DNA from: an uncultured Porphyromonadaceae bacterium | GTDB lineage: Bacteria; Bacteroidota; Bacteroidia; Bacteroidales; UBA12481 | Reading direction: 5' to 3' | NCBI GenBank assembly: GCA_964416825.1 | Contig: CAYQFT010000003.1 | Location: 1 to 53,062 of the forward strand | DNA: 53,062 nucleotides | In this document: one piece after another, positions 4,496-47,569 of the stretch | Layout: every line of letters begins with the position of its first letter | How positions within the stretch are numbered: the first letter of the stretch is position 1 | Notes under the pieces: model-generated | What the model was told of the DNA's origin: nothing | The model's database searches: none | Seen by the model: only the letters and a program-made list of their open reading frames with translations | Made by a program: the position numbers and the translations under genes

Positions 4496-4505
4496 TTATT
4501 TACAG

Positions 4506-10622: not shown

Positions 10623-10711
10623 TTTCTTAGTTTTTGACTGGATGTTAGGACAAAGTAAGGACATTTTTAGTTCAGAAGAGTTATCTTCGGTAACCATATA
10701 TCCTCCTATTG

Positions 10712-12200: not shown

Positions 12201-14420
12201 ATGGGCAGGCGATCAGGTTATCAAGCTTATCCTTGGTTCACGCTTAGGGCACCTTTGTTGCCCGTCGACGCATTGAAAGGAATCCCTGAGAGTCCGCTGG
12301 AACTTGACGGTTTTTTGCGGCCCATTTTCTCAAATCCCTTGGTTTCCGAGGCTTTATTGCTTGGCAGCTTTGATTTCCAGCAGGTTCTTTTCAATGAATT
12401 TCGCAACGCTCCTGAAGGGAAGGCTGATTATCGGATTCTGATATCCTTTCTCCGGTATTTTTGCCGGATGTCATCACGCTGCACCCCGTTTGGAACCTTT
12501 GCAGGGTTTGCTACCGGGTTGCTGTCGGGCCAGACAGATATAAAGATCGACCATCCGGAGAAGCACGGAGTGTATATCCGGCCGGATATGGAATACCTGA
12601 TGAGTGCGGCTAGGTACCTTGCCTCCAGTCCTGAAATCAGGGAATCCCTCTTATTTACGCCAAATACCAGCCTTTACCGGGTTGGCAGCCGCTGGCATTA
12701 TGTTCAGACCAACCCATCGTTGGCCGGAAGAAACAATGTTTATGATGTGGTGACGGTAGAGGATGCCGGAATTCTGAAGTCGCTGCTGGAATTTTGCCAT
12801 GCAGGACGTAAGTTGCACGATATCAAAGAATATCTGAATGCCGGAGGATGGGATGGGGGAGAGATAAACGACTATGTAAGTGCACTCACTATGGAACAGG
12901 TCCTTGTGAGCCAGTTGGAACCCGTTGTTTGCGGAAAGCAATACTTTGACGGACTTCTGAAGCTGATGGAATATGCTTTTCCTGAAAATGAAAAAATCCA
13001 GCCCCTTAGAAGCATTCACAGATTGCTGACTGATATTGCACATCCCGGCGACATTTCGCCGCTCAGAAACCGGTTATCCACAGAAGCGCGTAAGATTCCG
13101 GTTCCGGTCAATGAGAGTCACCTGATCCAGGCTGATATGAACCTGAGTTTTTCCAATCTAGAATTGGACCGGAACCTTGCCAACCAGATTCTCCTTGGGA
13201 TCAGGATTTCCCGGGCATTGTCGGTGAACCGACGGGCGGACCCTTTGGAGAAATTCCGGGAAGCTTTCATCAAACGATACGGAGAGCGGGAAGTTATGCT
13301 GGTGAAGGTTCTTGACCCTGAAACCGGTATCGGGCTGGAGGGGTCCGTTGAGAACTATTGGACCGATCCCGTGCCTTGGATCGATGACCTGCGCTGGGGG
13401 CCGGGATTCAGTACCCCATCCGTTTCCAAGGAGTCCGGACATACGTGGCTGGTTTCCCGGTTGTTTAAAACCGTCGCAGCCGGAGATTTATATCTTGATA
13501 TTCAGCAGCATGACATTCAGGATCTGGATATTCATTCCGGAATCTGGCCGGACCAGATCTGGGCCTTTGTTGAATTGCTCGATCCCGATAGTGAGGGCAG
13601 GAATCAGGTATATCTCAGCCTTAGTTCTCCCGGACACCCTGCTGCCATTCTTGGACGGTTTGGGTTTGCAGATCCGGCCAACACCATCGATTGGATGAAT
13701 CGGCTTATCCGGGATGAAACAGACCAGAACCCGGAAAAAATCTATGCCGAAGTCGTTCACCTGCCCGAGGATCGCACCGGCAATGTCTTGCAAAGGCCAT
13801 CCTTCTACGAGTATGATATTCCTTACCTCGCACGCTCCGAAAAACCGGCGGAGAAGCAAATCAGGGTTTCCGATATACTTGTTTCGGTCAGGAACGACCG
13901 GGTTGTGCTAACCTCTGCAACCACCGGGAGAGAGATCGTTCCAAGAATGACCAATGCCTACAATCACAATCTGGGTAATTTACCGGTATATAAATTTCTG
14001 CATCGCGTTCAACTTCAGGAAAACCTGAACGCCTGGCTTCCCTCATGGGGCGATGCTGCCAGAATGCTTTCTTATACTCCCGGCATACGTTTCCGCAATC
14101 TGATTCTGCTTGCTCCCTCATGGACTTTCAGAACGACTGATCTTGAACATTGGATCTCCATTGCCAAACAGAGCGTTGACATGGAATCTTTACTGAAGTG
14201 GAAGGAGTCCCGGTTTATGCCGGATGAGATGGTTTGGATGCACGGCGATCAGGATCTGTATTTTGACTGGAGGAACGCAAACCTGATATTGGCTCTCTGG
14301 GATGTTATTCATGGCTTTCCGTCAGTGACAGTCAGGCCATTTTATGCCCGATCGACCCCGGCGATGGGTTCTTCAGGAACCTTTGCCAACCAAATCGTAC
14401 TAGGTTATAAACAGGAATGA
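12201..14420 (+). CDS. Lantibiotic dehydratase, N-terminal (glutamylation) part of a split LanB
   Basis: 739 aa. Motifs: FTLRAPLLPVDAL near the N-terminus and RMSSRCTPFGTFAGFATG, both typical of Lant_dehydr_N. Starts 8 nt after the mqnD stop. Confidence 0.85.
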   Translation: MGRRSGYQAYPWFTLRAPLLPVDALKGIPESPLELDGFLRPIFSNPLVSEALLLGSFDFQQVLFNEFRNAPEGKADYRILISFLRYFCRMSSRCTPFGTFAGFATGLLSGQTDIKIDHPEKHGVYIRPDMEYLMSAARYLASSPEIRESLLFTPNTSLYRVGSRWHYVQTNPSLAGRNNVYDVVTVEDAGILKSLLEFCHAGRKLHDIKEYLNAGGWDGGEINDYVSALTMEQVLVSQLEPVVCGKQYFDGLLKLMEYAFPENEKIQPLRSIHRLLTDIAHPGDISPLRNRLSTEARKIPVPVNESHLIQADMNLSFSNLELDRNLANQILLGIRISRALSVNRRADPLEKFREAFIKRYGEREVMLVKVLDPETGIGLEGSVENYWTDPVPWIDDLRWGPGFSTPSVSKESGHTWLVSRLFKTVAAGDLYLDIQQHDIQDLDIHSGIWPDQIWAFVELLDPDSEGRNQVYLSLSSPGHPAAILGRFGFADPANTIDWMNRLIRDETDQNPEKIYAEVVHLPEDRTGNVLQRPSFYEYDIPYLARSEKPAEKQIRVSDILVSVRNDRVVLTSATTGREIVPRMTNAYNHNLGNLPVYKFLHRVQLQENLNAWLPSWGDAARMLSYTPGIRFRNLILLAPSWTFRTTDLEHWISIAKQSVDMESLLKWKESRFMPDEMVWMHGDQDLYFDWRNANLILALWDVIHGFPSVTVRPFYARSTPAMGSSGTFANQIVLGYKQE

Positions 14421-15250
14421 ATCAAAAAACAATCAGATATGTTCCCGGATCTTCCTGGTTGTACCTTAGGTTCTACGGAGGTACGCAGGCATTGGAAGAG
14501 TGGCTGACCGGTCCCTTTGAGCTGCTGCTTCAACCCTGGCTTGCAGCGGGTTCAGTTGAAAGTTTTCACTTCATCCGATACCTGGATCCGGATTACCACC
14601 TGCGGATCCGCCTTAGGCTGGCCGACCCGGTAAAAAGCGGTGAGGTCCTGACTTCCATCAGCAGAAGCTGCCAATCTTTTCTTGACCATGACCTGATATG
14701 GAAAGTGGAGGCGGGGACCTATGAGCCTGAAACCGAACGGTACGGTGTCAATCGTATGGAACTTGTTGAGGAGTGGTTCTTCATTGATTCTGTTTTCTGG
14801 CTCGGTGCAATCAGAAATTCCGAAGAGGATAATGATAACGACCGTTGGCATAACGGTGCCTGCCGGATAGATTGGCTGTTAAATCAATTTGGAGCCACAG
14901 CAATTGAGAAGTCGGTATTGCTGAACCGAATGCGGGAGGCCCTGTCGGCCGATTTCCATCTCTCACGATCCATGAAGAACCAGCTGGATATAAAATACCG
15001 CACTCTTTCGTCAGAACTCGAATCCTCTCTTCGAAATGCCATAAGAACCAATGAACACCTTCAGGTTCTTACTGATCTAAAGGCAACCTATGCTGACCAT
15101 GAAGCCATGATCCGCTCCAATCTGGTTCCCGACCTTGTTCACATGACCCTCAACAGGGCTTTCCGCACCCGGCACCGGCTGCAGGAGATGGTGCTGTATG
15201 ATTTTCTTGGGAGGTACTATCGCTCGGCGATGGCGAGAGCTAAGATTTGA
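14417..15250 (+). CDS. LanB C-terminal (glutamate elimination) domain protein, also called thiopeptide-type bacteriocin biosynthesis domain
   Basis: 277 aa. Motifs WLYLRFYGG and FHFIRYLDPDYHLRIRL are typical of Lant_dehydr_C/SpaB_C. ATGA overlap with the upstream dehydratase gene. Confidence 0.85.
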   Translation: MNQKTIRYVPGSSWLYLRFYGGTQALEEWLTGPFELLLQPWLAAGSVESFHFIRYLDPDYHLRIRLRLADPVKSGEVLTSISRSCQSFLDHDLIWKVEAGTYEPETERYGVNRMELVEEWFFIDSVFWLGAIRNSEEDNDNDRWHNGACRIDWLLNQFGATAIEKSVLLNRMREALSADFHLSRSMKNQLDIKYRTLSSELESSLRNAIRTNEHLQVLTDLKATYADHEAMIRSNLVPDLVHMTLNRAFRTRHRLQEMVLYDFLGRYYRSAMARAKI

Positions 15251-16088: not shown

Positions 16089-16114
16089 GTAGAGACGCAT
16101 AAATGCGTCTCTAC
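16089..16114. terminator. Perfect 12-bp palindrome, likely a bidirectional terminator or REP-like element
   Basis: GTAGAGACGCAT-AA-ATGCGTCTCTAC lies between the convergent SOD and DUF2961 genes. A related element with core GGACGCAT-GT-ATGCGTCC is at 18407-18424. Confidence 0.65.
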
Positions 16115-18105
16115 TAGGGTAATAGTTCTAAGATGATTTCAATCAGCGAAAGGTTTTTGCCGGAAAGCCGGAAGTAGACAACGTTGTTGCCCTGGACGGC
16201 ATTGAGTGTGCCGATCGGGAGGATGGGGCTGATGGCGGTCTCGGGGGCGTCAAGGTCGACCGGCTTGCCGAGAGGTTTATCGTGCTGCCGGGCCTGCAGG
16301 CTTCCCATATCGGGGCCTTGGATTGCTTTAACGCTGATCTGATATTTTCCGGCTTCTGGGAGATCGAGTATGAACGAAACCTCATGGGCACCAAAAACAT
16401 CCGAATTGGTTGTTTTCAGGGTAAAGCAGCGAACGCGGCCGGTTCCTACCTTCACGCTTCCTTTCTCAATCACAGCATTCTGTAGCGGGGTGGTGTGAGT
16501 CGGGACATTCCATCCGGGCACAAAAACAACTTTTTTCGGCGCGGTGATTCGGCGGTCGGCAAAATCAGGCAAGGGAACATTGGCAGAGGGTTTTTCTGTT
16601 GAATAATAGTACGTTACGCTGGTATAATCCGTGGTTTCGGCATTTCCTTCCGGCCCATGCTCGATGGTATAATCAATATTCCTGCGGAAAACATAGGTAT
16701 CCGGGATCATCCACCGGTAACCTCCGGTTCGTCCCATAGGTTTCTTGTAATCCAGGCAACCGCTGAGCGGGAATGATGCCCGTTCTTCCCAACGAGCTGG
16801 GACATCGTACCAGCCTCCATTGAAGGAATCCTCGGAGCCGGTTCCGTGGATGGCCATCTCGCCATCGATCATCACAATATCATCCCCTTCGAAGAATGTA
16901 GTGCCGCCCGGGTTAAAGCCCTGGGCCTGAAGGGAAACACCGATTACATGGCCGTTACCGGTAGTATTCAGGTAGGTAAAGGGTTTACCGGTGGTGCAGG
17001 GGTTTTCCCTGTTCCATTGACAATAGAAATACCCTTCATCGGCTTTTTTACCGTTCCGGGCAAAAACAACCTCTGCATCTACCGGTATGGCCGGGCCTGA
17101 TGTATTCTCCTGAACCAGCTCTACCCGCACTGATTTTGAGAAAGGCATCGGGAGATACAGGTAGTTGACGTTATTGCTGGTGCCTGTAAAAAGTGATTTA
17201 GTAGCCGGTTCCCCGAAACTGTAGCCAAAGAGATCGGCAACCGGACAGGTAACCGAGGGTAACGATTCTCCCTCATAATAAATATTGAGGACTGCATCCT
17301 TCCGGAGTCCGGCAAACTGGGAAGCAGGTCCCAGCTTAATTCCCAGAATCCTGCCGGGCTTGTTCATCTTAAAGATTTCCAGAGGCTTGCCCGGTGCGGC
17401 AGTTCCACTGATTTTCTTTGATTCAGGCTGGATTCCTGGCCCAGCCAGATACGAGGATATATCCGTTCCGGCGGAATTCAGGATTTTACCGGCTTCCTCA
17501 ATTTTCCGCAGCCACTCCAGTGACGGTGGATTCTGATAGGTCTGGATAAGGGTATTGGCCGGATATTTTACGTAATTGAGATCATAAAAGGTAAACACGG
17601 GACAATCCCTGATCATAATCTTGCAGGAATATTGGTATGAAATCGGGACATAGGTATAATAGCCTCCCACCCCCGACCCGGTTAGCGGTTCCAGGAAAGG
17701 CAGGTGCTTGCCGTCAAAATACTCCTTGATTTTCAGGCTGATTCGTGGTGTTTTTTCCCCATCGAGATAAAACTCCATGTAACCCTCCTGCGGATCCGGC
17801 ATGTGGATGCGGGTCACCACACCAGGCCCCTCCATTTCGGCGATGACAAGCTGATCCCCTTCTTTGCGCAGGTACGAATACTTCCCGCTAAAGCCGTCGT
17901 CGTTCCCGCCAGACCTATCGTAGCTTGTAAATGCCCCGGTTTGGACCTGTGTTTTGATTGTCGGTAGCAGGTCGAGCCGAAGCAGTGCCTCTATCCCGAT
18001 GGGTTGAACGGTTGAAATGGATTGTGCTTGTTGAGCCAGGGCGTCAGATGTACAGGCCAGGGCCGGCAATATGGCCAGGGAGAAAAGAATTCTGAGAAGT
18101 TTCAT
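16114..18105 (-). CDS. Secreted DUF2961 (GH172-like) family protein
   Basis: 663 aa. N-terminal signal peptide MKLLRILFSLAILPALA. The GPGVVTRIHMP motif and overall beta-rich composition resemble the DUF2961 family. Assignment made from memory of the family motif. Confidence 0.55.
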   Translation of the reverse strand: MKLLRILFSLAILPALACTSDALAQQAQSISTVQPIGIEALLRLDLLPTIKTQVQTGAFTSYDRSGGNDDGFSGKYSYLRKEGDQLVIAEMEGPGVVTRIHMPDPQEGYMEFYLDGEKTPRISLKIKEYFDGKHLPFLEPLTGSGVGGYYTYVPISYQYSCKIMIRDCPVFTFYDLNYVKYPANTLIQTYQNPPSLEWLRKIEEAGKILNSAGTDISSYLAGPGIQPESKKISGTAAPGKPLEIFKMNKPGRILGIKLGPASQFAGLRKDAVLNIYYEGESLPSVTCPVADLFGYSFGEPATKSLFTGTSNNVNYLYLPMPFSKSVRVELVQENTSGPAIPVDAEVVFARNGKKADEGYFYCQWNRENPCTTGKPFTYLNTTGNGHVIGVSLQAQGFNPGGTTFFEGDDIVMIDGEMAIHGTGSEDSFNGGWYDVPARWEERASFPLSGCLDYKKPMGRTGGYRWMIPDTYVFRRNIDYTIEHGPEGNAETTDYTSVTYYYSTEKPSANVPLPDFADRRITAPKKVVFVPGWNVPTHTTPLQNAVIEKGSVKVGTGRVRCFTLKTTNSDVFGAHEVSFILDLPEAGKYQISVKAIQGPDMGSLQARQHDKPLGKPVDLDAPETAISPILPIGTLNAVQGNNVVYFRLSGKNLSLIEIILELLP

Positions 18106-18310
18106 GGTTGTTTAGTCTACGTAGGTTTGACGTATTTATTTCAAATGCATGATCACAATAATCTGATTTTCCTCGCCCGTTGATTTCTCTATATAATTCA
18201 GCAGCTGATCCCGTTTCTCCGGCATCAGAAGAACAGAGAACAGGAGTAGCGTGCGGAGTTTCATGAAGGCAGGATTGCGCCTTATAAATGTAGGGAAAAT
18301 CCTGAAAGTT

Positions 18311-18424
18311 GCGCCCTTGCAGGGCGCTGGAAAAGATTTAATGGGGCGGGGGAGGCCTCCGGCTGCGCCGGAGGGTACTCAGATGCCGCCCCTGCGGGGC
18401 TGAGAAGGACGCATGTATGCGTCC
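18311..18424. repeat. Cluster of four short GC-rich hairpins
   Basis: GCGCCCT-TGC-AGGGCGC (18311-18327), CCTCCGGC-TGC-GCCGGAGG (18356-18374), GCCCC-TGC-GGGGC (18388-18400) and GGACGCAT-GT-ATGCGTCC (18407-18424). Three of the four share a TGC loop. Confidence 0.75.
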
Positions 18425-18460
18425 CTACAGCTGCCTCGCCACAAATAACGTGTTTCGGTT

Positions 18461-18509
18461 CACGGGTCACGTGTCACGTTTTCCGCGTCACGCATCACGC
18501 GTCACGATC
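18461..18509. repeat. Heptanucleotide tandem array (7 units) overlapping the stop codon of the homocysteine methyltransferase gene
   Basis: CACGGGT CACGTGT CACGTTT TCCGCGT CACGCAT CACGCGT CACGATC, all in 7-nt phase. In the gene's sense orientation the unit is CGTGACG, the same unit as at 52890-52924 and 19680-19700. Confidence 0.8.
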
Positions 18510-19386
18510 TTGCCACATCCCGCATCCGCCTGATATGCGCCGGCGTGGTGCCGCAGCAGCCGCCGATAATGTTGGCGCCGGCCTGGATAAGGCGGGGAAC
18601 GTAAGAGGCGGTGATTTCGGGAGTTTCACTGAAAACGTTCTTGCCGTCGTGGAAGTGGGGCAGGCCGGCATTGGCATGGACCAGCACGGGGATTGCCGGA
18701 TCGATTTTTCGGATCAGCTCAACGATCGGGATCATGTTTTCCATTCCGTTGCCGCAGTTGGTTCCGATTATATCTGCACCGGCTTCTTTCAGTGCAACTA
18801 CCATTTCTTCAGGTGAAACGCCCATCATGGTGCGGAAATCGCCCTGAATGGTTTTGTCGAATGTCATGGTTGTGATGACTGTCAGATCGGTATTTTCTTT
18901 GGCTGCCCGGGTGGCAATTGTGGCTTCGTCGAGGGCGGTCATGGTTTCAATGCAGATGACATCGGCACCCGCTTCGGCCAGGGCCACGCACTGTTTCTTA
19001 AAGCCTTCGTATAATTCTTCTTCAGTAACGTCTCCCATCATGAGAAGAATTCCGGTGGGACCAACGGATCCCAGAACGATCCGGTCGGGACCAATGGCCC
19101 GCCGGGTGATTTCAACGGCTTTGCGGTTGAGTTCCACAACCCGGTCCTGTAATCCGTAATGGCTCAATTTGAAGCGGTTACCGCCAAAAGTGTTTGTTTC
19201 CACGGCATCCGAGCCTGCTTCGGCATAGGCTCGGGCTATGGCTTCAACTTTATCCGGGAAATCGGCATTCCAGGTTTCCGGACAAACGCCGGGCTCGAGG
19301 CCCGCAGCCTGCAGCATGGTTCCCAGGGCGCCGTCAGATATCAGGATTCCGCCACTTTTCAGTCGGTCTATGATTGAGTGTGCCAT
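18502..19386 (-). CDS. Stand-alone homocysteine S-methyltransferase domain protein (MetH N-terminal-module-like, zinc-dependent)
   Basis: 294 aa. Motifs: ISDGALGTML, GTNCGNG and GGCCGTTPAHI, which are the Cys ligands of the Hcy-binding zinc site. No pterin-binding or B12 domains in the same polypeptide. Confidence 0.85.
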   Translation of the reverse strand: MAHSIIDRLKSGGILISDGALGTMLQAAGLEPGVCPETWNADFPDKVEAIARAYAEAGSDAVETNTFGGNRFKLSHYGLQDRVVELNRKAVEITRRAIGPDRIVLGSVGPTGILLMMGDVTEEELYEGFKKQCVALAEAGADVICIETMTALDEATIATRAAKENTDLTVITTMTFDKTIQGDFRTMMGVSPEEMVVALKEAGADIIGTNCGNGMENMIPIVELIRKIDPAIPVLVHANAGLPHFHDGKNVFSETPEITASYVPRLIQAGANIIGGCCGTTPAHIRRMRDVARS

Positions 19387-19387
19387 A

Positions 19388-20350
19388 TCAGTTCTTTTTT
19401 TGTAAAGCTAAAAACTGTTTCGAGAATTCCCGGTTATTGAGATCGGGGCCCAGGGCAATCAGCTCTGTTGGGCCGTCATAGCCGGTGATGGTTAGTATTT
19501 GAATCTGATCGAAAACGCATTGGATAGCAAGGGTTTCCTGCAGGTTGATACGGATGTAGCCTTTCAATCGGTACAGGTACGGAGATTTGTCAGCAATAAA
19601 ATTTTTAACCGCTTCCGGGTCGAAATAGCGGTTGGAGCGGACGACGCAGGAGCCGATATTTGGTCTTGGCTCCGAGTCCGCGTCACGCGTCACGCGTCCC
19701 GGATCGTTGGCGGGGAGATCCCGGCCTTCGCCGGGATGACAAAGCAGGTGAAGGAGATCGATCTGGTTTGTGGCGCCAAACGTTGTTTCGATGATGTCGG
19801 CGAAAGGGTTTATCTCGACAATTCGCTTTTTTATCAGAGAAACGTCGCTGACAAGATCGGTTTTGTTGATCCAGATGAGGTCGGCGATGCGGATCTGGTG
19901 GCGGGAGCGGGAGACGGTGTCGATGATTTTGTGGAAGTTGGCGGCGTCGACGATGCACCAGGAGGCGGCGAGATAGATTTTGTCGGTGAGCTTATCGGAA
20001 TGGATGATCTGACCGAGTGAGATGGGATCTGCGAGACCCGTGGCTTCGAGCAGGATCACATCGGGATGAACCTGATTGATAAAGGGTTCCAGCCGGTCGA
20101 TGAAGTCGCTGAGCAGACAGGCGCAGAAGACGCTTCCGTTGTTAATCTCGAGGAGTTCGAAGGGCTCTTCTGAACGGCGTAGTGTGATTCCGTCGGTGTG
20201 CCCGGGGGCGAACTCATTCTGCACAATTGCCAACCGAAGACCGCCGGAATACTTCTTTACGAGATCCAGCAGCAGCGTGGTTTTGCCGCTGCCCAGGAAC
20301 CCGGTTATCAGAATAAACGGTACCTTTTTCAGAGAATCTCCTTGATCCAT
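19388..20350 (-). CDS. CobW/COG0523-family G3E GTPase (putative metallochaperone)
   Basis: 320 aa. Motifs: P-loop GFLGSGKTTLL, EATGLADP, INKTDL, and a CobW_C-like C-terminus. The expected GCxCC metal motif reads SVFCACLL. The linker contains repeat-derived sequence (see findings). Confidence 0.8.
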   Translation of the reverse strand: MDQGDSLKKVPFILITGFLGSGKTTLLLDLVKKYSGGLRLAIVQNEFAPGHTDGITLRRSEEPFELLEINNGSVFCACLLSDFIDRLEPFINQVHPDVILLEATGLADPISLGQIIHSDKLTDKIYLAASWCIVDAANFHKIIDTVSRSRHQIRIADLIWINKTDLVSDVSLIKKRIVEINPFADIIETTFGATNQIDLLHLLCHPGEGRDLPANDPGRVTRDADSEPRPNIGSCVVRSNRYFDPEAVKNFIADKSPYLYRLKGYIRINLQETLAIQCVFDQIQILTITGYDGPTELIALGPDLNNREFSKQFLALQKKN

Positions 20351-21957
20351 TCCTTGATCACATCGGTTCCCGGGTTGCCGGCCTCGCTCCGAATCTTGTA
20401 TTTGATCGCCACCCAGGCGGGAGTCTGTGCCACGCCCAGAGAGCGGATTACTTCGGGATTGGTTTCCTGCCGAAGCTCCACAGAAACGCCCAGCTCGGCT
20501 ATCGCCTGTCGGGTTTTCTCAAGCAGCGGTTCAATTTCTTCGGATGTTTTGCCGAGCAGGAGGATTTCCCCTTGTTTCACCCGCAGCCTGATTTTCAGTT
20601 TCTCGTTGATCCGGTTCTGGATGGCCCGGATCAGTTCGTTCCTGGGTGGGATCTGTGAAACAAAGGTGATTTTCCCGTCGATGCAGATGGTGGGAATATT
20701 CTTGACAAACAGGGAGGACATGAAGGTGACGCCTTCAAGGTTTTTGATCGAATGTTCGCGCCACTCAACCAGGCCCTCGAAGTGGGGAGCCACTTCCTTA
20801 ACGGCCTCCACCATGTACTGGCAGGGGGCGCAGGATTCTGAGTCCAATGTGATGATGTCCACGATTACCTGGTCGCTCTTTCCGTATTCATCGAGGTTGA
20901 GCAGGTGCGGCTTGCCCTCCTTGTGCTCAAGGGTACGGACGATATCCTGGCGATAGGAATCCCTTACAAGTTGTGATACGGCCTGAATGTTCGCTACGGG
21001 TGTTTTCATGGGCAGGTCGCAGCCAGGGGCAAGAACGAAACCAGTAGTGCCGGCTATATCCATGCATTCCAATGCGTTACGCTGACAGTCCTCCGGCGTG
21101 CCCATCAGCATCACCAGAGTCAGCTGCAGGTTGCCGCCGAAGCTGATGCCGTATCGGCTGCAGATATTTTTTACATAATCCAGGGGGATATTTTCATCGA
21201 TCGAAATGTTATCCGGACCCGATTTACACATCACCTCGATGTTCTGCTGAGCGTGACCGCATACGAAGAACGAACTCAATCCCTTATTGCTCCGGATGTA
21301 GCTGAACACATCGGCCATTGGCTGGTGGATATATTCGGTGAACTGATCGGGCCCGATCTGGGAGGTCATGGGGTCAACCACGGCAATCACATCGCAGCCG
21401 GCTTCCAGATAATAGCCTGCCATGGCTTTGGTAACCGAAGCGGTGAAGGCGAGCAGTGATTTCGTATAGGCCGGGTCTTCGAACATTTTCATAAAGATGT
21501 CGGTCCCGAGCAGGTGGAGACCCAGGGTGAACGGGCCCGTGACGAGACCGTACAGGCAGATATCGGGATATTTTTTCCGGAGTTCCCGGGCGGCTTCAAC
21601 TGAGACGGGTATCCTTCCGGCGTTGGGTCCGGGAACCTGAAGTCCAGTCAGGTCATTTTTACCTGCGAGTGGGTGAGTTACCACGGCCGGGGGATTCTCA
21701 TCGGCCCAGGCCAGTTCGCAGCCCAGGGCTTCGGCTTCAATCTGGAGGTCGAAACAGACGGGGATTCCGTCGGGTTGATAGAGTTCGATTGCCTTACTGA
21801 TACCCTCGATAATGAGTTTTGAGGATTTGAGGTATTCAGTTGCAGTTTTCCCGATGAGGTATCCTCCATGGACGCCCACGAAGGGAACCCAGGGAATAAT
21901 CGGGGTCTGGCCGCCCTTGAAGGCGGCCACTACCAAATTTTTTCCTGTCATAATCAA
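20329..21957 (-). CDS. URO-D/MtaA-family methyltransferase fused to two C-terminal thioredoxin-like domains
   Basis: 542 aa. The N-terminal ~345 aa form a URO-D-like barrel (FFVCGHAQQN). Next comes a Trx/Grx-like domain with CxxC (DSESCAPCQYMVEAV ... IPTICIDGKI). A second Thioredoxin_3-like domain lacks the cysteines (ILLLGKTSEEIEPLLE ... TPAWVAIKYKI). ATGA overlap with the upstream gene. Confidence 0.7.
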   Translation of the reverse strand: MIMTGKNLVVAAFKGGQTPIIPWVPFVGVHGGYLIGKTATEYLKSSKLIIEGISKAIELYQPDGIPVCFDLQIEAEALGCELAWADENPPAVVTHPLAGKNDLTGLQVPGPNAGRIPVSVEAARELRKKYPDICLYGLVTGPFTLGLHLLGTDIFMKMFEDPAYTKSLLAFTASVTKAMAGYYLEAGCDVIAVVDPMTSQIGPDQFTEYIHQPMADVFSYIRSNKGLSSFFVCGHAQQNIEVMCKSGPDNISIDENIPLDYVKNICSRYGISFGGNLQLTLVMLMGTPEDCQRNALECMDIAGTTGFVLAPGCDLPMKTPVANIQAVSQLVRDSYRQDIVRTLEHKEGKPHLLNLDEYGKSDQVIVDIITLDSESCAPCQYMVEAVKEVAPHFEGLVEWREHSIKNLEGVTFMSSLFVKNIPTICIDGKITFVSQIPPRNELIRAIQNRINEKLKIRLRVKQGEILLLGKTSEEIEPLLEKTRQAIAELGVSVELRQETNPEVIRSLGVAQTPAWVAIKYKIRSEAGNPGTDVIKEWIKEIL

Positions 21958-23027
21958 TGTCTTGGATATAATTCCAGGGCAGCCTCTTTCATGGCCACCA
22001 GGTTTTCAAAGGGCACTTCGGGTTCGACTAAATGGGTTGGTCCCAGGATCAGCCCGCCTTTAGTTCCACACGTGCGAATACGCTCAATAGACAGCTCCCG
22101 GACTTGTTCTGGTGTTCCGAATGGCATAAGTTGTTGTGTGCCAAGAGTTCCCCAGAAAGATAACCGGTTTCCATACTGGGCATGCACAGCATTGAAATCC
22201 ATGCATTCGGGCTGTATGGGATTCAGAATATCCACGCCGGCGTCTATCAGTCCCTCGATAAATAGGGTAGCGTCGCCGCAGGAGTGGTAGAAAATCAGGA
22301 TATCGGGATTTATATTCCGGGCGGCATCGATCACTCTGCGGAGGCGGGGTTTGATCCACTGTTCCCAAAGTTCGACGCTCATCATGGGGCCTGTTTGCAT
22401 GCCAACGTCATCACCTAAAGATATGATGTCAACACCGGCCTGTGCATGAAGGGTTACACGGTTTATCTGATAACCGAGAATTTTATCGAACAGGATGGTG
22501 GCTTTTTCGTCCTCCAGCATCATGTCCATGAGCATGTCCTCCATGGATCGCAGGTACCAGGCGGCTTCCCAGATCGTCATTTGCATCATGCACATGGCGG
22601 CAAGTCCGCGTTGGTGCAGGGAGGCAACCTGATCGAAAAGCGGTTGGTTCTCTTCCCGTTTTACGGCCGGAAGAGGGTAGTTGAGAATCTCTTCCACCGA
22701 ATCGGCCCCGGCAAGCGGATGGTGCATGCGGGTCATGTGGAAGGCAGCTTCGGAACCTTTGGAATGGCCGAGCCCCAGAACGTCAAACTCAGTATCGGCT
22801 GGCAGGATTTCTCTCGGATAAAGTAAACGGGGATTGACGGATCCCGGGTTTTCATTCAGTTCAACCCAGCGGAAATCCACGCCGAACCAATCAAAATAGT
22901 CTTCATGGCCGAATCGCTTCCGGAAGGATTTAACCTGGGAATCGCAGAGAACCAGATCAATGGGAACCCAGTCGAACCCTTGCCGGCGCGCTGCACGGAT
23001 CAGGTTTTCACGGGGTGTGATCTTCAT
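21954..23027 (-). CDS. URO-D/MtaA-family (methylcobamide-type) methyltransferase
   Basis: 357 aa. Uroporphyrinogen-decarboxylase-like fold signature (LIFYHSCGDAT). Its start overlaps the stop of the corrinoid protein gene by 1 nt. Confidence 0.7.
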   Translation of the reverse strand: MKITPRENLIRAARRQGFDWVPIDLVLCDSQVKSFRKRFGHEDYFDWFGVDFRWVELNENPGSVNPRLLYPREILPADTEFDVLGLGHSKGSEAAFHMTRMHHPLAGADSVEEILNYPLPAVKREENQPLFDQVASLHQRGLAAMCMMQMTIWEAAWYLRSMEDMLMDMMLEDEKATILFDKILGYQINRVTLHAQAGVDIISLGDDVGMQTGPMMSVELWEQWIKPRLRRVIDAARNINPDILIFYHSCGDATLFIEGLIDAGVDILNPIQPECMDFNAVHAQYGNRLSFWGTLGTQQLMPFGTPEQVRELSIERIRTCGTKGGLILGPTHLVEPEVPFENLVAMKEAALELYPRH

Positions 23028-23701
23028 CAGGCTATATGTTTGTTCAGGAATTCAACGGCTCCCTGCGGATCCGGTGAATACCAGTCGGCCCCTATGCGAA
23101 CCCTGAAATCATCGGTTACCGGCGCACCACCGACAAGAATTTTTGTATCAGGTTTTGCAGCCTTGATCTCATGAACAATCTTTTCCATATTGAGCATGGT
23201 GGTTGTGAGCAGGCAGCTCAGGCCAATAAATGCTCCCGGGTGCTGATCCACTGCGGCCATGAATTTGGCAGCAGGAACGTCGATGCCAAGGTCGACAACT
23301 TCCCAGCCTGCACCTTCAACGATCATGCCAAGCAGGTTTTTACCGATGTCATGGAGGTCCCCCATGACCGTACCGATAATGAAAACGCCTTTACGCTTTA
23401 CTGCACCCGACTGAAAATAGGGCTTAAGGTGCTTCATCCCTGCGCTCATGGATTTGGCTGCCATTAAAACTTCGGGAACGAAAACCTTGTTTTCACGAAA
23501 TTTTACTCCAATAATCTGCATGCCGGGCACCAATCCCTTCTGCAGCACCTCATCTGCCGGAATTCCGGCAGCAAGAGCCTGAACGGTAAGTTCATCGGCA
23601 CCGTCCTGTTCTTTCATATCGGGTGGGAAAGGAGAGGTTTTATTAACTTTACCTCTTTCAACGCATTTTGCAATCTTGGCAAGTAATTCTTCAGGGTTCA
23701 T
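23027..23701 (-). CDS. Corrinoid (cobalamin-binding) methyl-carrier protein
   Basis: 224 aa. B12-binding_2 cap followed by a Rossmann domain with DxHxxG (GDLHDIGKNLL), SCLLTTTM and VGGAPV motifs. Confidence 0.9.
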   Translation of the reverse strand: MNPEELLAKIAKCVERGKVNKTSPFPPDMKEQDGADELTVQALAAGIPADEVLQKGLVPGMQIIGVKFRENKVFVPEVLMAAKSMSAGMKHLKPYFQSGAVKRKGVFIIGTVMGDLHDIGKNLLGMIVEGAGWEVVDLGIDVPAAKFMAAVDQHPGAFIGLSCLLTTTMLNMEKIVHEIKAAKPDTKILVGGAPVTDDFRVRIGADWYSPDPQGAVEFLNKHIA

Positions 23702-23747
23702 TCTCGTAAAATTTAGTTGATCACAAATATATAAATCCTGTTCTGAT

Positions 23748-24326
23748 ATGTTAAATGAATTAGTACTGAAAAACCGCAGCTACAGAAGATTCGATGCAGC
23801 CGTCCCTGTTCCGGCAGACACGTTGGAGGCACTGGTCGGTTTGGCACGGATCTGCCCCTCAAGCCGGAATCAACAAGCCTTAAAGTTTGTCTGTATAAAT
23901 GAGAAAAACCAAACCGGCGAGGTTTTCAAAACCCTGGCGTGGGCAGGGTATCTTAAGGATTGGAAAGGTCCCGCTGAAAACGAGCATCCAACGGGGTACA
24001 TAATAATTCTCGGCGATACCAACCTGGGTACCCGCTTTGACATTGACCTTGGAATAGCCGCCCAAACCATTCTGCTAGGCGCCGTTGAACAAGGGCTGGG
24101 GGGCTGCATGATTGCTTCCGTCAAGAAAGATGAGCTGAGATCATTCTTGAAAATCCAGGAACATTTGGAAATATTATTGGTTATTGCCCTTGGAAAGCCT
24201 GTGGAAACAGTAGTTATTGATCCGGTTATTGATGGTGAAATCCGCTATTTCAGAGATCAAAACCAGGTTCACCATGTTCCCAAAAGAGAAATGGATGATA
24301 TCCTGATCCGGATACATAATGCTTAA
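23748..24326 (+). CDS. Nitroreductase-family flavoprotein
   Basis: 192 aa. NRSYRRFD motif near the N-terminus, PSSRNQQ, and a size typical of the family. Confidence 0.8.
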   Translation: MLNELVLKNRSYRRFDAAVPVPADTLEALVGLARICPSSRNQQALKFVCINEKNQTGEVFKTLAWAGYLKDWKGPAENEHPTGYIIILGDTNLGTRFDIDLGIAAQTILLGAVEQGLGGCMIASVKKDELRSFLKIQEHLEILLVIALGKPVETVVIDPVIDGEIRYFRDQNQVHHVPKREMDDILIRIHNA

Positions 24327-24626: not shown

Positions 24627-25367
24627 TTATTTCAACAAGCCATCAAGCTGGGCCGATACTGAATCCCAGTTTACAACCTGCAGGAATCCGCTTATATAAT
24701 CCGCCCGTTTATTCTGATATTTAAGGTAATACGCATGTTCCCATACATCGCAGACCAATATCGGAATGGTGGTCCATTGGGATTGGTTCTGATGCTTTTC
24801 TGCCTGAAGAACGACCAGCCTGTCTGCATCGGGCTCATAACCCAGAATTCCCCAGCCGCTGCCTTCAACGGATGCGGATGCCTGCTTGAAAAGGCTGATA
24901 AAACGGTCGAAAGAGCCGAAGGATTTGATAATATATTTTTCCAGGGTTTCACTTCTTTTACCGGTTTTAGGGCCCATGTTGTTCCAGAACAGAACATGCA
25001 GAAAGTGACCGGCACCGTGAAAAGCCATTTCTCTTTCCCAATGCTTGATCAGGCTGAAATCTCCTGAATCCATTGCTTCACCAACTTTTTTTATGGCCGT
25101 GTTTAACCCTTTTACATAGCTTGCATGATGAATGCTGTGATGAAGTTTCATCGTAGCTTCATCAATATAGGGTTCAAGGGCATTATAGGCATAGGGGAGG
25201 GCAGGAAGTGTATATTCTCCGGCCTGATTAAGGGTAGACTGGGAAAACACAAAACCATTTGCAGCCGTTGAGGAATTTCCGCGGACAATTCCAGCGGCAA
25301 GACCCGCTCCGATCAGAGCAGTGGATTTAAGAAATTCTCTTTTATTCATGATCGTGTTATTTTTCAT
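24627..25367 (-). CDS. Fe/Mn-family superoxide dismutase with N-terminal Tat-like export signal
   Basis: 246 aa. N-terminus: NKREFLKSTALIGAGLAAGIV (KR variant of the RRxFLK twin-arginine motif). Mature part: LPALPYAYNALEPYIDEATMKLHHSIHH and [15 protein letters not shown]. Confidence 0.9.
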   Translation of the reverse strand: MKNNTIMNKREFLKSTALIGAGLAAGIVRGNSSTAANGFVFSQSTLNQAGEYTLPALPYAYNALEPYIDEATMKLHHSIHHASYVKGLNTAIKKVGEAMDSGDFSLIKHWEREMAFHGAGHFLHVLFWNNMGPKTGKRSETLEKYIIKSFGSFDRFISLFKQASASVEGSGWGILGYEPDADRLVVLQAEKHQNQSQWTTIPILVCDVWEHAYYLKYQNKRADYISGFLQVVNWDSVSAQLDGLLK

Positions 25368-25398: not shown

Positions 25399-28300
25399 CT
25401 ACTTAAAAGCTTTTTCCAACAGTCCGTCGCCGGTCATTGCCAGTTGTCTGAAATATTCAGGAACGGGTTTGCCTGTGAGTGAATCGACATACAGTTTTGC
25501 AAGATATTGCCCGAGCATGAAGCCTTGTCCCCGTAGGCCAAGGAACAGCCCAAGGCTAGGATCAAGGATCATTCTGGGCTCAACGTAGTAACCGGCCCAG
25601 ACAGCCTGGAACCCAACGGAGGAAAGCTCCGGAATCCAGTTAACAAATACCTCCGAAGCGATTTCCAGGAAGTCCTGAGAGTTGATTTTCAGATTTTTAT
25701 CTGATTCCTGAGGGTCTGTAGCGGGTGATGCACATCCGATAACCTGACCGGTCTCGCCCAGCTGCTGTCCGTAGACTGCACTGAATCCCTTGTATTTCTG
25801 GCGGTCGATAACCATCGGAAGCGGTGCACCATTGACCCCAAGCATGGGTAATCTTCGTGTGATGAAGGCCTGATGCTTTACCGGGTACATTCCGGTTTCA
25901 ATTCCAAGCTTTCTCGCAAAATGGTGACCTTCCGGTCCCATGGCATTGATAAAATTGGGGGTCGTAATCTCGAGGTACTTCTTGTCATGGTTCTGCACCA
26001 GAACATTAAACTCTCGGCCATCTTTCCTTACATCAATCAGTTTGCAGTCTTCCCAGATCGTCCCGCCTTTTGCGATTCCCAGAGTCCGGATCAGGTCGAT
26101 GACCCTGCCGGGTGTGGCCTGCCAGCAATCATGGGTAATAAGGGCAGCAGGATAGCTTTCTGCCAGACGGTCGTTGATGAATGGGGAAATCCTGGTAGAA
26201 TATTTTTCCGGACCGATCATCTCGGCATCCGACCAGGACATTGAGGCTTCGAGCGCCTTAAGCATGTCTTCGTCGTGGGCAAAGGTTACATAGTCTATCG
26301 GGCGAAAATCGATATTCTTGATTTTCTGAAGTTCCTTGAATATTTCGAGATTATGCCGTGCAATGTCGGATAATTCGGGGACGCTGAAATTGGGCCGTCC
26401 ACCTGCAATATTCCTCCAGGAAGCACCCCGGCCTGAATTAACCAGAACCGGTTTTTTACCAGCTTCGCTAAGGTACCGGAAAAGGGCCGAGCCCCCAATT
26501 CCCCCGCCAACAACCAGCGCTTCAACCCTGATTTTTTCCGGCTGGCGGCTTCGGTCGACGATATGTATTTGCTCACTGGTTACTTTTGGATAAAGTTCTC
26601 CCATTCCCACCTGGTTTGACAGGGGACCACGAGGAGTGGCATCGCCGACAATCTGAATGCCAGACCCATGAAGAGCGGTTTTCAGACGCTTGATGCAACG
26701 CTTACCCCGGCAGGCACCCATCCCAAGCCGGGTGGTATGCTTGATTTCATCGACGGAAATGAACTTCCTGTCACCAATCCGTTCCAGGATTTCATCCATG
26801 GTAACATCGTCACAGTGGCAAACATAGGTTGGATTTTCAACCTCCGTTTGAACCGGACGTATGCGCACAGGCTCCGGGTATCTGGCCTTAATAATAAAGC
26901 CTCTCACTTCAACAAGCTTCTCGCCATGAATGTCGAGGGCTTTTACCCGGGCTACGTCTGTTTTGTTAGCCTTTTTCAGAATCTTTTCAAGCATCCCTGT
27001 TCCCAGGATATTTCCGTTGTTGTCTACCAGGTATACTTCCGAACCGGCTTCAGCTGTGTATTCAATCGGAAGAAACAGCCAGTCTTTCGGAAGGTTGTAC
27101 CCGAAAATGGCCAGACCTGGACACTGGTATACACAATCCATGCATCCTATGCACTTATCGAAATCTATCTGGGGAACCGTGCTGGTTGATGTTTTGGTGA
27201 TGGCCCCGTGAGGGCAGGCAAATTCACAGGGATTGCAGGCAAATCCATACAGACAATCAATCTGCACAAATCCTTTGCCATTCATCCGGTTGGCAGACGG
27301 CAGGTAAGGTGTGTCAATGATTTTGATAGGATGCTGCTGACTGTCAATATATTCCTTTGATAATGCCAGATATGCGTCATAATCAAACCGTTCACCCATC
27401 TCTTCCAGAAGTTCATAGGCAACCTGCTTGCCGCGCAGCACGGCGCTGGTCCCTTCTCCGATCCTGATCGCGTCTCCGGCGCCATAAACATTTCTGCCAA
27501 AAACCTCTTTACCCTTGATTAAAAGCTGATCATCTGGTACCAGACCTGTACAGATATTGATTGCGTCGATACCTTCAATGATTTTTTCCGTACCTGGAAC
27601 CGGCTGGAAATTAACAGATTCCGCCACCACAGCACCGACAATTCCGGTGCGGTCTTCATTTGGAATGGCTTTGATCAGGAGGTGGTTTAGCATGACCGGA
27701 ATTCCCAGCCTTCTGACCCTGTTGGCCTGAACAGGGAATCCACCCTCGCGGGGCATGGCCTCTACAATAGCCTTAACCGTAGCACCTGCTTGCATCAGCT
27801 GATAGGATGTGAGATAGCCGATATTCCCGGCACCAACGGTTAAAATGTTCTTGCCGAGCAGGGTAAACTCATTATTCATCATCTTCTGAACGACCGCAGC
27901 AGTGTATACACCCGGCAGGTCATCGTTTTCAAACGTCGGCATAAAAGGTACCGCGCCCGTGGCGATTACCAGGTGCTCAGTATCGATATAGAAGATTTCC
28001 TGAGTAACTATATTTTTTATAGCCAGACGTTTACCTTCCAGGATATCCCACACCGTACAATTCAGGAAAATCCCATCGAGGTTTTCTCCAGCCAGGGTTT
28101 TAGCAATATCAAATCCACGCATTCCTCCAAACTTCTTCTCCTTCTCAAAGAAAAAGAACTGGTGAGTCTGCATGAGGAATTGCCCTCCGATTTTGTCATT
28201 ATTGTCGATAACAATGTTATCTATTCCATGCCGGTTTAAGATTTCGCGGGTTGCCAAACCGGCCGGCCCGGCTCCGATGATGGTCACGGCGGAGCGATAA

Positions 28301-28641
28301 ACCCGGGTTGGAGTTTTCTTGTCTACCGGACGTGGCGCAGGACGATAATCCCGGGGAACTTCCTTAACCTCTTTTACTCCATCAACACGGGTTATACAAA
28401 TTCTCTTAATCTCCCCGTCAACCAGCATTTCGCAAGCACCGCATTTCCCAATGCCGCATTCAAGACTCCTGTTCCTTCCCTGGATACTATGGCTATGCAC
28501 CGGGAAACCAGCCTGATGCAGCGCTGCTGCAATGGTGAAGCCTTGCTCGCCGGTTACCTTTACGCCTTCAAAATTAAAAGTCAGCTGTTCGCGCTTTTCA
28601 ATATCCAGAATCGGATGTTCAATAATTTTCAACATGATCAA
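25399..28641 (-). CDS. Giant fused iron-sulfur flavoprotein: 2Fe-2S, pyridine-nucleotide-disulfide oxidoreductase, 2x[4Fe-4S], BFD-like 2Fe-2S, DAO-type FAD dehydrogenase
   Basis: 1080 aa. Motifs in order: CGIGKCGACEMLVDGE; IIGAGPAGLA and VGAGNIGYL; CNPCEFACPHGAI and CIGCMDCVYQCPGLAI; CHCDDVTMDEI..GMGACRGKRC; VVGGGIGGSALF. The architecture resembles fused HcnA/B/C, sarcosine oxidase or archaeal proline dehydrogenase subunits. Confidence 0.75.
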   Translation of the reverse strand: MIMLKIIEHPILDIEKREQLTFNFEGVKVTGEQGFTIAAALHQAGFPVHSHSIQGRNRSLECGIGKCGACEMLVDGEIKRICITRVDGVKEVKEVPRDYRPAPRPVDKKTPTRVYRSAVTIIGAGPAGLATREILNRHGIDNIVIDNNDKIGGQFLMQTHQFFFFEKEKKFGGMRGFDIAKTLAGENLDGIFLNCTVWDILEGKRLAIKNIVTQEIFYIDTEHLVIATGAVPFMPTFENDDLPGVYTAAVVQKMMNNEFTLLGKNILTVGAGNIGYLTSYQLMQAGATVKAIVEAMPREGGFPVQANRVRRLGIPVMLNHLLIKAIPNEDRTGIVGAVVAESVNFQPVPGTEKIIEGIDAINICTGLVPDDQLLIKGKEVFGRNVYGAGDAIRIGEGTSAVLRGKQVAYELLEEMGERFDYDAYLALSKEYIDSQQHPIKIIDTPYLPSANRMNGKGFVQIDCLYGFACNPCEFACPHGAITKTSTSTVPQIDFDKCIGCMDCVYQCPGLAIFGYNLPKDWLFLPIEYTAEAGSEVYLVDNNGNILGTGMLEKILKKANKTDVARVKALDIHGEKLVEVRGFIIKARYPEPVRIRPVQTEVENPTYVCHCDDVTMDEILERIGDRKFISVDEIKHTTRLGMGACRGKRCIKRLKTALHGSGIQIVGDATPRGPLSNQVGMGELYPKVTSEQIHIVDRSRQPEKIRVEALVVGGGIGGSALFRYLSEAGKKPVLVNSGRGASWRNIAGGRPNFSVPELSDIARHNLEIFKELQKIKNIDFRPIDYVTFAHDEDMLKALEASMSWSDAEMIGPEKYSTRISPFINDRLAESYPAALITHDCWQATPGRVIDLIRTLGIAKGGTIWEDCKLIDVRKDGREFNVLVQNHDKKYLEITTPNFINAMGPEGHHFARKLGIETGMYPVKHQAFITRRLPMLGVNGAPLPMVIDRQKYKGFSAVYGQQLGETGQVIGCASPATDPQESDKNLKINSQDFLEIASEVFVNWIPELSSVGFQAVWAGYYVEPRMILDPSLGLFLGLRGQGFMLGQYLAKLYVDSLTGKPVPEYFRQLAMTGDGLLEKAFK

Positions 28642-40280: not shown

Positions 40281-40430
40281 GGCTGTATTAAAAATCCAAA
40301 GGTAAAAAACTTGAGAACACATTTGCGATATGCATAAATATGCATAATGACATAAATCATCTAATCATAGGGGGTTGGGTGGCTTTAATGTGCTATTTTT
40401 GTCACAAACGAAAGCAAAAAATTAAGTTTT

Positions 40431-47539: not shown

Positions 47540-47569
47540 CAATCCTGATAAAAATTAGGATTTGTGATA

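Follow-up and report, generated by a model that had tools for sequence, protein, structure and literature searches.

A conserved Bacteroidota operon with a thioredoxin-fused MtaA-like protein as a candidate folate-independent, B12-dependent methyl relay to methionine

From which donor could a homocysteine methyltransferase module take its methyl group when it is encoded together with a corrinoid protein and two URO-D-family proteins, and no methyl-folate module is recognised beside it? This question is raised by a five-gene operon on contig CAYQFT010000003.1 (assembly GCA_964416825.1) of an uncultured Porphyromonadaceae bacterium (UBA12481), of which positions 1 to 53,062 were analysed and are called the window here. 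The operon encodes, in order, a corrinoid (B12) carrier, a divergent URO-D-superfamily protein (U1), a URO-D protein fused to two thioredoxin-like domains (UT), a COG0523/CobW-type G3E GTPase and a stand-alone homocysteine-binding (Hcy) module. Based on the analyses described below, we suggest that its products form a B12-dependent relay that carries methyl groups to methionine without folate, resembling MetH assembled from separate proteins with its folate module replaced, and we give this reading a probability of roughly 55%.

The last protein of the relay is, as judged from its sequence, a MetH-type module. It matched S-methyl_trans (PF02574) over profile positions 1-281 of 283 (2.4e-71, 241 bits), and its translation contains the GTNCGNG and GGCCGT motifs, so that the 294-aa Hcy module with zinc cysteines of a preliminary description of this DNA was recovered. 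The zinc ligands Cys211, Cys277 and Cys278 are conserved in 58 orthologues together with SDGA.GT (DGAxGT) and iETM (IET). It matched the Hcy domain of Thermotoga maritima MetH at 1e-50, BHMT at 2e-18 and MmuM at 2.8e-14. When relatives were collected from 1.8 billion cluster representatives, most were stand-alone proteins of about 300 aa, with proteins of 770-870 aa interleaved among them at 42-51% identity, and the two long relatives scanned with Pfam (769 and 867 aa; 47-51% identity) were MetH proteins with Hcy, pterin and B12 domains. A BHMT- or MmuM-type enzyme, which the preliminary description had named as a finding that would speak against its proposal, was rejected because MetH is far closer and the identity to multi-domain MetH reaches 47-51%. 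Judging from its family and context, the module would accept the methyl group from methylcobalamin or from a methyl-corrinoid protein. An exact-sequence look-up found no record identical to this protein.

The first protein of the operon fits the methyltransferase-type corrinoid carriers. It contains PF02607 and PF02310 (62.7 and 86.7 bits, above the cut-offs; 1.4e-24 for the B12-binding domain), and its nearest NCBIfam families are of the MtgC/MtbC type (189 and 148 bits, below the cut-off) and the B12 region of MetH. The DxHxxG, SxL and GG motifs reported earlier were read from the translation as GDLHDIG, SCL and GGAPV, and GDLHDIGKN, GLS.LLTTTM and GGAPV are kept across 61 orthologues. Cobamide binding and cycling between Co(I) and CH3-Co(III) are predicted on this basis. 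When about 40 non-nested open reading frames (ORFs) of at least 150 aa in the window were scanned, no pterin-binding domain (PF00809), RACo or RamA activase, or MetH activation domain (PF02965) was found, in agreement with the earlier claim that a pterin module and a RamA-type activase are absent. A tblastn probe for the pterin module found none beside locus L092, the sole full Bacteroidota module that it covered, with the 80 UT loci described below left unprobed. Each operon component scored under the cut-off of every curated NCBIfam family, and therefore none has a named equivalog.

The most unusual component is UT. Its description as a URO-D protein fused to thioredoxin-like domains held, with Pfam matches to URO-D and Thioredoxin_3 and a second thioredoxin-like NCBIfam match at residues 467-539. 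In sequence UT is closest to MtaA (4ay7, 1.4e-24), and it scored 158.1 bits against the MtaA/CmuA family TIGR01463 (cut-off 235.4) and 64.5 bits against the HemE family TIGR01464 (cut-off 302.95), below the cut-off in both cases. The AlphaFold model of UT (predicted local distance difference test score, pLDDT, 86) aligned in Foldseek with MtaA 4ay7 at a template modelling (TM) score of 0.89 and a root-mean-square deviation of 2.1 Å, and with UroD at TM 0.75-0.82. His240 of MtaA is replaced in UT by the invariant Phe229, and Cys231 and Cys311 are kept and are both invariant, so that the site reads Phe229-x-Cys231...Cys311 and departs from the His-x-Cys...Cys zinc site. An invariant Glu lies 22 residues past the first Cys, which we take to be the spacing of the zinc-binding Glu of MetE. 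These residues point to a putative, altered Cys/Cys(/Glu) metal site. The first thioredoxin-like domain aligned with Methanocaldococcus jannaschii Mj0307 (1FO5) with its invariant CxxC in register, and the second aligned with MTH895 (1ILO) and has lost the CxxC. The CxxC domain may have a redox or metal-handling role.

The GTPase matched cobW (7.3e-36, 123.9 bits) and CobW_C (36 bits) and carries a Walker A motif (GFLGSGKT) and NKTD (NKxD), consistent with its earlier assignment as a CobW-like G3E GTPase. The canonical metal-binding motif of COG0523 proteins is CxCC; the present protein instead carries C76-x-C78 (FC76-x-C78LL), which does not vary among 61 orthologues and lacks the third Cys. 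We regard the GTPase as a putative metallochaperone.

U1, the other URO-D protein, is far more divergent. Its assignment as URO-D-like was supported by Pfam (2.5e-22), and MtaA was the sole relative found by a profile search against the PDB (6.5e-7), in which a single-sequence search gave no match. U1 scored 64 bits against TIGR01463 and 18.7 bits against TIGR01464, both below the cut-offs, and a genuine HemE, raised earlier as an identity that would overturn the proposal, was rejected for UT and U1 alike on the TIGR01464 scores. In the profile alignment, HSCG and GPTH of U1 align with the zinc ligands of MtaA, giving His248-x-Cys250 and His332, and the candidate metal site His248-x-Cys250/Glu274/His332 is invariant in 35 sequences. 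The AlphaFold model of U1 (pLDDT 89) aligned with MtaA at TM 0.66-0.69 and with UroD about equally well. Both URO-D genes directly follow the corrinoid gene in the window, and U1 is present within the operon only in the window's clade, where it comes right behind the corrinoid gene. UT and U1 are not equivalent in role, and U1 is a putative substrate-specific donor-side methyltransferase.

We then examined whether the genes stay together in other genomes. A UT motif scan of a one-genome-per-species collection returned at least 583 matching stretches, and linkage was counted in 52 UT loci with enough flanking sequence. The best 80 loci are 58-80% identical and belong for the most part to Bacteroidales, Prolixibacteraceae, Cytophagales and Cyclobacteriaceae; two cultured strains, Mariniphaga anaerophila DSM 26910 and M. 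sediminis SY21, are among the carriers. UT is accompanied by the CobW gene in 49/52 loci, by the corrinoid gene in 47/52 and by the Hcy gene in 43/52, and a lack of such linkage, which had also been named as refuting the earlier proposal, was not what we found. Chance juxtaposition of the operon genes was rejected by synteny conserved in dozens of independent genomes. The commonest arrangement elsewhere is a divergent AraC gene next to corrinoid-UT-Hcy-CobW. Of the five genes named earlier, four make up the conserved core, and U1 is an extra that is confined to the operons of the window's clade. Contigs assigned to bins of Verrucomicrobiota, Candidatus Kuenenia and Chitinivibrionales (L065, L075, L078) also carry UT genes at 58-59% identity, which reflects either horizontal transfer or mis-binned Bacteroidota contigs.

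A stand-alone MetH activation domain of about 235 aa (PF02965 by Pfam) is encoded near 24 of the 52 loci, usually just downstream, and a RACo-type activase is encoded in five loci (L035, L043, L045, L048 and L092). The activation-domain proteins (L014 11830-12546, L022 11432-12139 and 26 other loci) have a conserved Cys-rich end, e.g. YTCRLCNFKNCNYR, and carry a Cys in an RYSPGYCGW motif; these features give a hint of a bound metal or iron-sulfur centre that E. coli MetH lacks. The window's clade shows a variant with U1 and a divergent nitroreductase gene, and with no AraC or activation gene nearby; tblastn searches with the activation-domain, AraC, GntP and 2-hydroxyacid dehydrogenase families gave no match in the window. 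The nitroreductase gene lies beside the operon in 10/52 loci, all of them U1-bearing and with no activation gene nearby, and the best PDB match of its product is an uncharacterised structural-genomics protein (2r01). As a guess, the nitroreductase could be a redox helper in the clade without an activation-domain gene, and its membership in the system is uncertain.

A parallel design was obtained from a metagenome scan anchored on the Hcy protein. Ordinary MetH genes, frequently preceded by a separate activation gene, made up most of the matches at 36-48% identity. In two unrelated high-GC contigs (L101 133-3863 and L106 26-3385), overlapping genes encode an MttB-family methyltransferase, an activation domain, a corrinoid protein and an Hcy module, and no pterin domain was found in these four-gene operons. 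Both look like operons for a B12-dependent quaternary-amine:homocysteine methyltransferase. Because the MttB operons share the design of the UT modules, the latter are by analogy likely to be methyl-X:homocysteine relays with UT in the donor slot, and we consider this parallel the strongest argument for both points.

We infer the direction of methyl flow, the donor-side enzyme, the donor and the role of the GTPase as follows. A URO-D-family zinc methyltransferase would move the methyl group from a heteroatom-methyl donor to the Co(I) of the 224-aa corrinoid protein, with UT as the donor-side enzyme of the conserved core and U1 as an extra, substrate-specific enzyme in the window's clade. The MetH-type Hcy module would take the methyl group from CH3-Co(III) to form methionine. 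The CobW-type GTPase, which is translationally coupled to UT, would serve as the metallochaperone for the Cys/Cys(/Glu) site of UT. Corrinoid trapped as Co(II) would be rescued in sister lineages by the stand-alone MetH activation domain, which uses S-adenosylmethionine (SAM), or by the RACo activase, and in the window's clade by a factor presumably encoded outside the operon. The MetH-type Hcy module, the conserved linkage, the activation or RACo genes of sister loci and the MttB parallel all lend support to the earlier proposal that methionine may be made here from a donor other than methyl-tetrahydrofolate.

Several points weigh against this proposed relay. The metal site of UT is only putative because the zinc-binding His of the His-Cys-Cys set is missing. 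An adjacent Hcy gene is missing in 9/52 well-flanked loci, and no reactivation factor is encoded among the scanned ORFs of the window. The closest characterised relative of UT, MtaA, is an acceptor-side enzyme that transfers methyl from methyl-Co to a thiol, so UT is possibly an outlet and not an inlet. U1-like and UT genes occur together in 15/52 loci, and one of the sampled loci, L035, combines U1-like, UT, corrinoid and RACo genes with no Hcy gene; these arrangements fit an MT1/MT2 pair at least as well. Homocysteine would also be a poor bulk methyl sink if the donor is a growth substrate. The acceptor-side activity of MtaA, the co-occurrence of U1-like proteins with UT and the composition of L035 make one alternative a serious rival, if a somewhat unlikely one: the corrinoid protein would be a hub with two outlets, where U1-type proteins, many of them encoded far away in sugar operons, are the sole donor-side enzymes, UT disposes of methyl groups onto a thiol, maybe aided by its CxxC domain, and the Hcy module is the anabolic outlet. 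This would be consistent with the closeness of UT to the methyl-Co:CoM enzymes MtaA and MtbA and with chromosome OW818695.1, on which a U1 orthologue in an AraC-U1-SSF-GH2 operon and the core module lie about 1.4 Mb apart, and it solves the methyl-sink problem. However, it leaves the canonical corrinoid-UT-Hcy-CobW-activation operon without a donor-side enzyme, although modules of this kind normally include one, as the MttB-activation-corrinoid-Hcy operons show. In addition, a candidate thiol cofactor pathway was not seen nearby, and UT does not have the His-Cys-Cys typical of thiol-methylating URO-D enzymes (rule from PMC10418091).

The other alternatives differ in the donor or in the task of UT. 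The same relay could run on a methyl-sulfur or methyl-selenium donor (methanethiol, dimethyl sulfide, methylthio-acids or methylselenol), as a methyl-S/Se salvage system of the sort proposed for the type 1 mlp clusters of Firmicutes; the sulfide or selenide set free would then be handled by the CxxC domain. Methyl-S/Se demethylation has been proposed for MtaA-like proteins that have corrinoid partners, and ClMlp2 acts on selenide in vitro (PMC10418091); both active-site Cys are retained in UT, and there are weak NCBIfam matches to selenoprotein relatives (HUIPC thioredoxin-like, 42.9 bits; CobW-related selenoprotein, 31 bits). These matches are, however, far under the cut-offs, the His-Cys-Cys site associated with S/Se substrates (PMC10418091) is present in neither UT nor U1, and S/Se metabolism genes were not noticed in the sampled neighbourhoods, in which sugar genes and AraC/LacI regulators recur, so that we regard such a donor as unlikely. 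A folate-dependent methionine synthase in pieces, with UT as a non-homologous replacement of the pterin module that uses methyl-tetrahydrofolate, would explain why the canonical operon has three of the four MetH modules (Hcy, B12 and activation) and exactly one extra methyltransferase. MetE, of the same structural superfamily, binds methyl-folate and was matched by UT in Foldseek (E about 1e-6). But UT retains two Cys of a heteroatom-activating site and has a dedicated metallochaperone, neither of which is needed for folate, and AraC/LacI regulators, transporter neighbours and the lack of SAM or B12 riboswitches (no Rfam match at the gathering score in the window and eight related loci) look like an inducible utilisation system and not a housekeeping one. 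To our knowledge, no URO-D/MtaA-family enzyme uses folate, and we consider this explanation very improbable. Hardly more credible is that UT and CobW stand outside the methyl path and process the cofactor, through thiol-dependent cobamide dealkylation and a chaperone, comparable with human CblC and MMAA/MeaB. UT and CobW form the tightest pair (49/52 loci, with a 22-nt overlap), several loci contain this pair with neither a corrinoid nor an Hcy gene beside it, the thiol could come from the CxxC domain, and G3E GTPases include the B12 chaperone MeaB. Nevertheless, the present GTPase is of the COG0523 type with a Cys-x-Cys metal motif and not of the MeaB type, UT retains a putative substrate-activating metal site, an MtaA-like cofactor-processing enzyme is without precedent, and the canonical operon would again have no donor-side enzyme.

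For the methyl relay that we favour, the leading candidate donor is a sugar-borne methyl group, although its probability is low. All five U1 orthologues sampled outside the module (56-59% identity) lie among sugar genes: the AraC-U1-SSF-GH2 operon mentioned above, GH9-U1-SSF-GH3, a GH116/SSF/DUF4185 neighbourhood, one with a sugar isomerase-like gene, GFO/IDH/MocA and GH2, and a sugar-acid operon that encodes a lactonase, an enolase-superfamily dehydratase, an SDR and an RraA-like protein. In loci without an adjacent corrinoid gene, UT directly follows NanM-SSF fusions, PfkB kinase or DUF5703 genes, and extended UT clusters add GH120-like, GFO/IDH/MocA and 3-keto-disaccharide hydrolase genes together with more URO-D paralogues. 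The regulators adjacent to the module are of the AraC or LacI type, and a GntP permease and a 2-hydroxyacid dehydrogenase recur near it. On the other side, a census of 116 distinct families neighbouring the UT module was diffuse, with 2-3 members in the top families, and the sugar link is only moderate for the core because of this and because Bacteroidota are rich in sugar genes. It is conceivable, if doubtful, that anaerobic Bacteroidota use B12 to demethylate methyl ethers of sugars or sugar acids, with U1-type proteins from scattered sugar-utilisation operons as the substrate-specific demethylases and the corrinoid-UT-Hcy-CobW hub passing the methyl groups to methionine.

No published description of this cluster was found in full-text literature searches. 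The closest known system is the split MetH/MtgBCDE of Phaeobacter inhibens (PGA1_c13370/c13350/c16040) and Ruegeria pomeroyi. Genetic evidence indicates that a separate Hcy module and a separate corrinoid protein cooperate in Phaeobacter (PMC5764234), and in Ruegeria the corrinoid protein MtgC is also fed by the non-folate donor glycine betaine via MtgB (PMC12478193). Both that system and ours contain a stand-alone PF02574 Hcy module (MtgE there), a separate corrinoid protein and separately encoded reactivation, the latter by RamA-like and DUF1638 proteins there and by the PF02965 domain or RACo in sister loci here. However, that system has a pterin methyl-tetrahydrofolate module, MtgD, whereas none was found in the scanned window ORFs; its donor-side enzyme belongs to the MttB family and not to a URO-D/MtaA-like thioredoxin fusion; no COG0523 GTPase has been described for it; and it occurs in aerobic Proteobacteria, while the present one occurs mostly in anaerobic Bacteroidota. 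What is new here relative to it is the MtaA-like, thioredoxin-fused enzyme with an altered metal site, the COG0523 GTPase and the fact that no folate module was found.

The comparison with MetH itself (E. coli; T. maritima TM0268) shows an Hcy module 40-50% identical to MetH Hcy domains, and the B12 cap and B12 domain are shared. In sister loci a gene of its own encodes the activation domain, as in MetH loci of other taxa; Thermotoga MetH TM0268 has the separate activation protein TM0269. Unlike in MetH, the modules are separate proteins, URO-D proteins take the place of the pterin module, and there is an extra GTPase. With the MtaA/MtbA/MtsA/CmuA systems the operon shares the modelled MtaA fold of UT and its position beside an MtbC/MtgC-like corrinoid protein, and the URO-D family includes donor-side members, MtsA and CmuA. 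UT differs in falling below the TIGR01463 cut-off, in the exchange of the zinc His for Phe and in its two fused thioredoxin-like domains, and the predicted final acceptor is homocysteine and not coenzyme M or tetrahydrofolate. Corrinoid O-demethylases (OdmB/VdmB/MtvB), which we compared by description, are URO-D donor-side enzymes that transfer methyl from methyl ethers to a corrinoid, and U1 is comparably divergent from MtaA; however, they act on phenyl methyl ethers and pass the methyl group to tetrahydrofolate through a pterin-type methyltransferase II, in contrast to the carbohydrate gene context and Hcy-type acceptor module found here. The type 1 mlp clusters described by Kountz and Balskus, for which the substrate is unknown and a role in methyl-heteroatom metabolism was proposed, occur mainly in Firmicutes, and Bacteroidetes are not mentioned (PMC10418091). 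They also combine MtaA-like proteins with a corrinoid protein and no folate methyltransferase in non-methanogens. Yet they contain Mlp2 and Mlp3 with His-Cys-Cys sites and a Ram/RACE activase, whereas neither URO-D protein of the operon has such a site and no Ram/RACE gene was found among the scanned window ORFs, and only the present operon has an Hcy module, a thioredoxin fusion and CobW; membership in type 1 mlp was rejected on architecture and zinc sites, with the distinction from Mlp2/3 made by description. Finally, the 'core' methionine synthases MesA and MesB are folate-independent, with corrinoid proteins delivering the methyl group to homocysteine (PMC7857596), but they are MetE-related, and the module here is of the MetH type.

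The layout of the operon is summarised in Table 1. The five minus-strand ORFs are identical to those of the preliminary description, and of its junctions the 1-nt overlap of genes 1 and 2 (TGATG), the 22 nt shared by the end of UT and the start of the GTPase gene and the 1-nt gap between genes 4 and 5 (TGAtATG) were confirmed. The 4-nt overlap between genes 2 and 3 probably does not exist, since nearly all UT homologues are 538-542 aa long, mostly 539 or 540 (120 homologues listed), and an ATG start is called for UT in a 96%-identical contig; UT probably starts at the ATG at 21951, leaving a 2-nt gap. The motif TATATTTG lies 22 nt upstream of the ATG of the corrinoid gene, inside a 46-bp divergent spacer; the Bacteroidetes-type -7 consensus is TAnnTTTG. 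The spacer behind the Hcy gene folds as RNA with -97.3 kcal/mol (z = -5.5 against shuffles), and the GH172 gene beyond it has its own start; this spacer is the probable end of the operon. The GH172 gene is also found downstream in L001, L002 and L007, and it may be a further carbohydrate link or a plain neighbour. The corresponding spacer of the 96%-identical contig measures about 1.1 kb and contains small ORFs, one of which encodes a PemK toxin. The 12-mer CGTGACNCGTGA has seven copies with at most one mismatch in the window against 0.37 expected (sites 18460-18506, 19683-19701 and 52890-52901), and an overlapping run of four copies begins at the Hcy stop codon, with two further copies inside the CobW gene.

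Table 1. Positions of the operon genes, UT domains and flanking elements in the window.
Feature	Position	Strand	Remarks
Gene 1, corrinoid (B12) carrier	23027..23701	-	224 aa; cap and Rossmann B12-binding domain
Gene 2, U1, divergent URO-D-superfamily protein	21954..23027	-	357 aa
Gene 3, UT, URO-D and two thioredoxin-like domains	20329..21951	-	540 aa
UT, alternative start	TTG at 21957	-	542-aa ORF, 20329-21957
UT, MtaA-like URO-D domain	20932-21951	-	aa ~1-340; Pfam URO-D 1.2e-55
UT, first thioredoxin-like domain	20602-20880	-	aa ~358-450; Pfam Thioredoxin_3; invariant CAPC
UT, second, degenerate thioredoxin-like domain	20332-20574	-	aa ~460-540; without CxxC
Gene 4, COG0523/CobW G3E GTPase	19388..20350	-	320 aa
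Gene 5, stand-alone MetH-type Hcy module	18502..19386	-	294 aa
-7 promoter box TATATTTG	23724..23731	-	sequence motif match only
Divergent nitroreductase-family flavoprotein	23748..24326	+	192 aa; Pfam Nitroreductase 3.3e-17
GC-rich, hairpin-filled spacer	18106..18501	-	396 bp, 3' of the Hcy gene
GH172 (DUF2961) protein	16114-18105	-	663 aa, directly downstream of the operon

Other genes of the window were also recorded. Just upstream of the operon lies a gene for a 1080-aa single-chain flavoprotein (25399-28641, minus strand) with 2Fe-2S, Pyr_redox_2, 4Fe-4S dicluster, BFD-like 2Fe-2S and DAO domains, which looks like a fused HcnABC/opine- or sarcosine-oxidase-type enzyme and is kept at this place in most loci of the window's clade at 77-84% identity. 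It is followed by a gene for an Fe/Mn superoxide dismutase of 246 aa that is considerably extended at its N terminus (24627-25367, minus strand), and a 354-aa 4Fe-4S protein (28794-29858, plus strand) is encoded divergently from it. On the plus strand, a split lanthipeptide-type dehydratase (12201-15250; Lant_dehydr_N, 739 aa, and Lant_dehydr_C, 277 aa) adjoins futalosine-pathway menaquinone genes (10709-12192; PNP_UDP_1-like and VitK2_biosynth), and two adjacent proteins of 1166 and 995 aa (995-7493) each combine a response-regulator receiver domain with PPDK_N (PEP-utilising, ATP-binding), an unusual signalling architecture. A 718-aa aldehyde:ferredoxin oxidoreductase is encoded beside a DUF364 'heavy-metal chelation' protein (39588-42587), and a solute-binding protein, a TonB-dependent receptor, a permease and an ABC ATPase with a TOBE domain (46589-52864) look like a tungstate/molybdate uptake set that would serve this tungsten enzyme; together the enzyme and the uptake set support an anaerobic lifestyle of the host.

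Bacteroidota play a major part in polysaccharide degradation and consume large amounts of scavenged B12, yet only a few B12-dependent enzymes are usually listed for them. The module described here is widespread (at least 583 UT matches at one genome per species), and if our reading is correct, it would provide methionine without methyl-folate, by a route that metabolic reconstructions currently miss, and would give Bacteroidota an added reason to compete for cobamides. UT, with its MtaA-like barrel, CxxC thioredoxin fusion and COG0523 GTPase partner, represents an uncharacterised enzyme type, and the cultured carriers make the relay idea directly testable. If the sugar link also holds, the system would offer a mechanism by which methyl groups that obstruct the breakdown of sugars are taken off under anaerobic conditions, and would do without oxygen what P450 sugar demethylases do in aerobic marine Bacteroidota.

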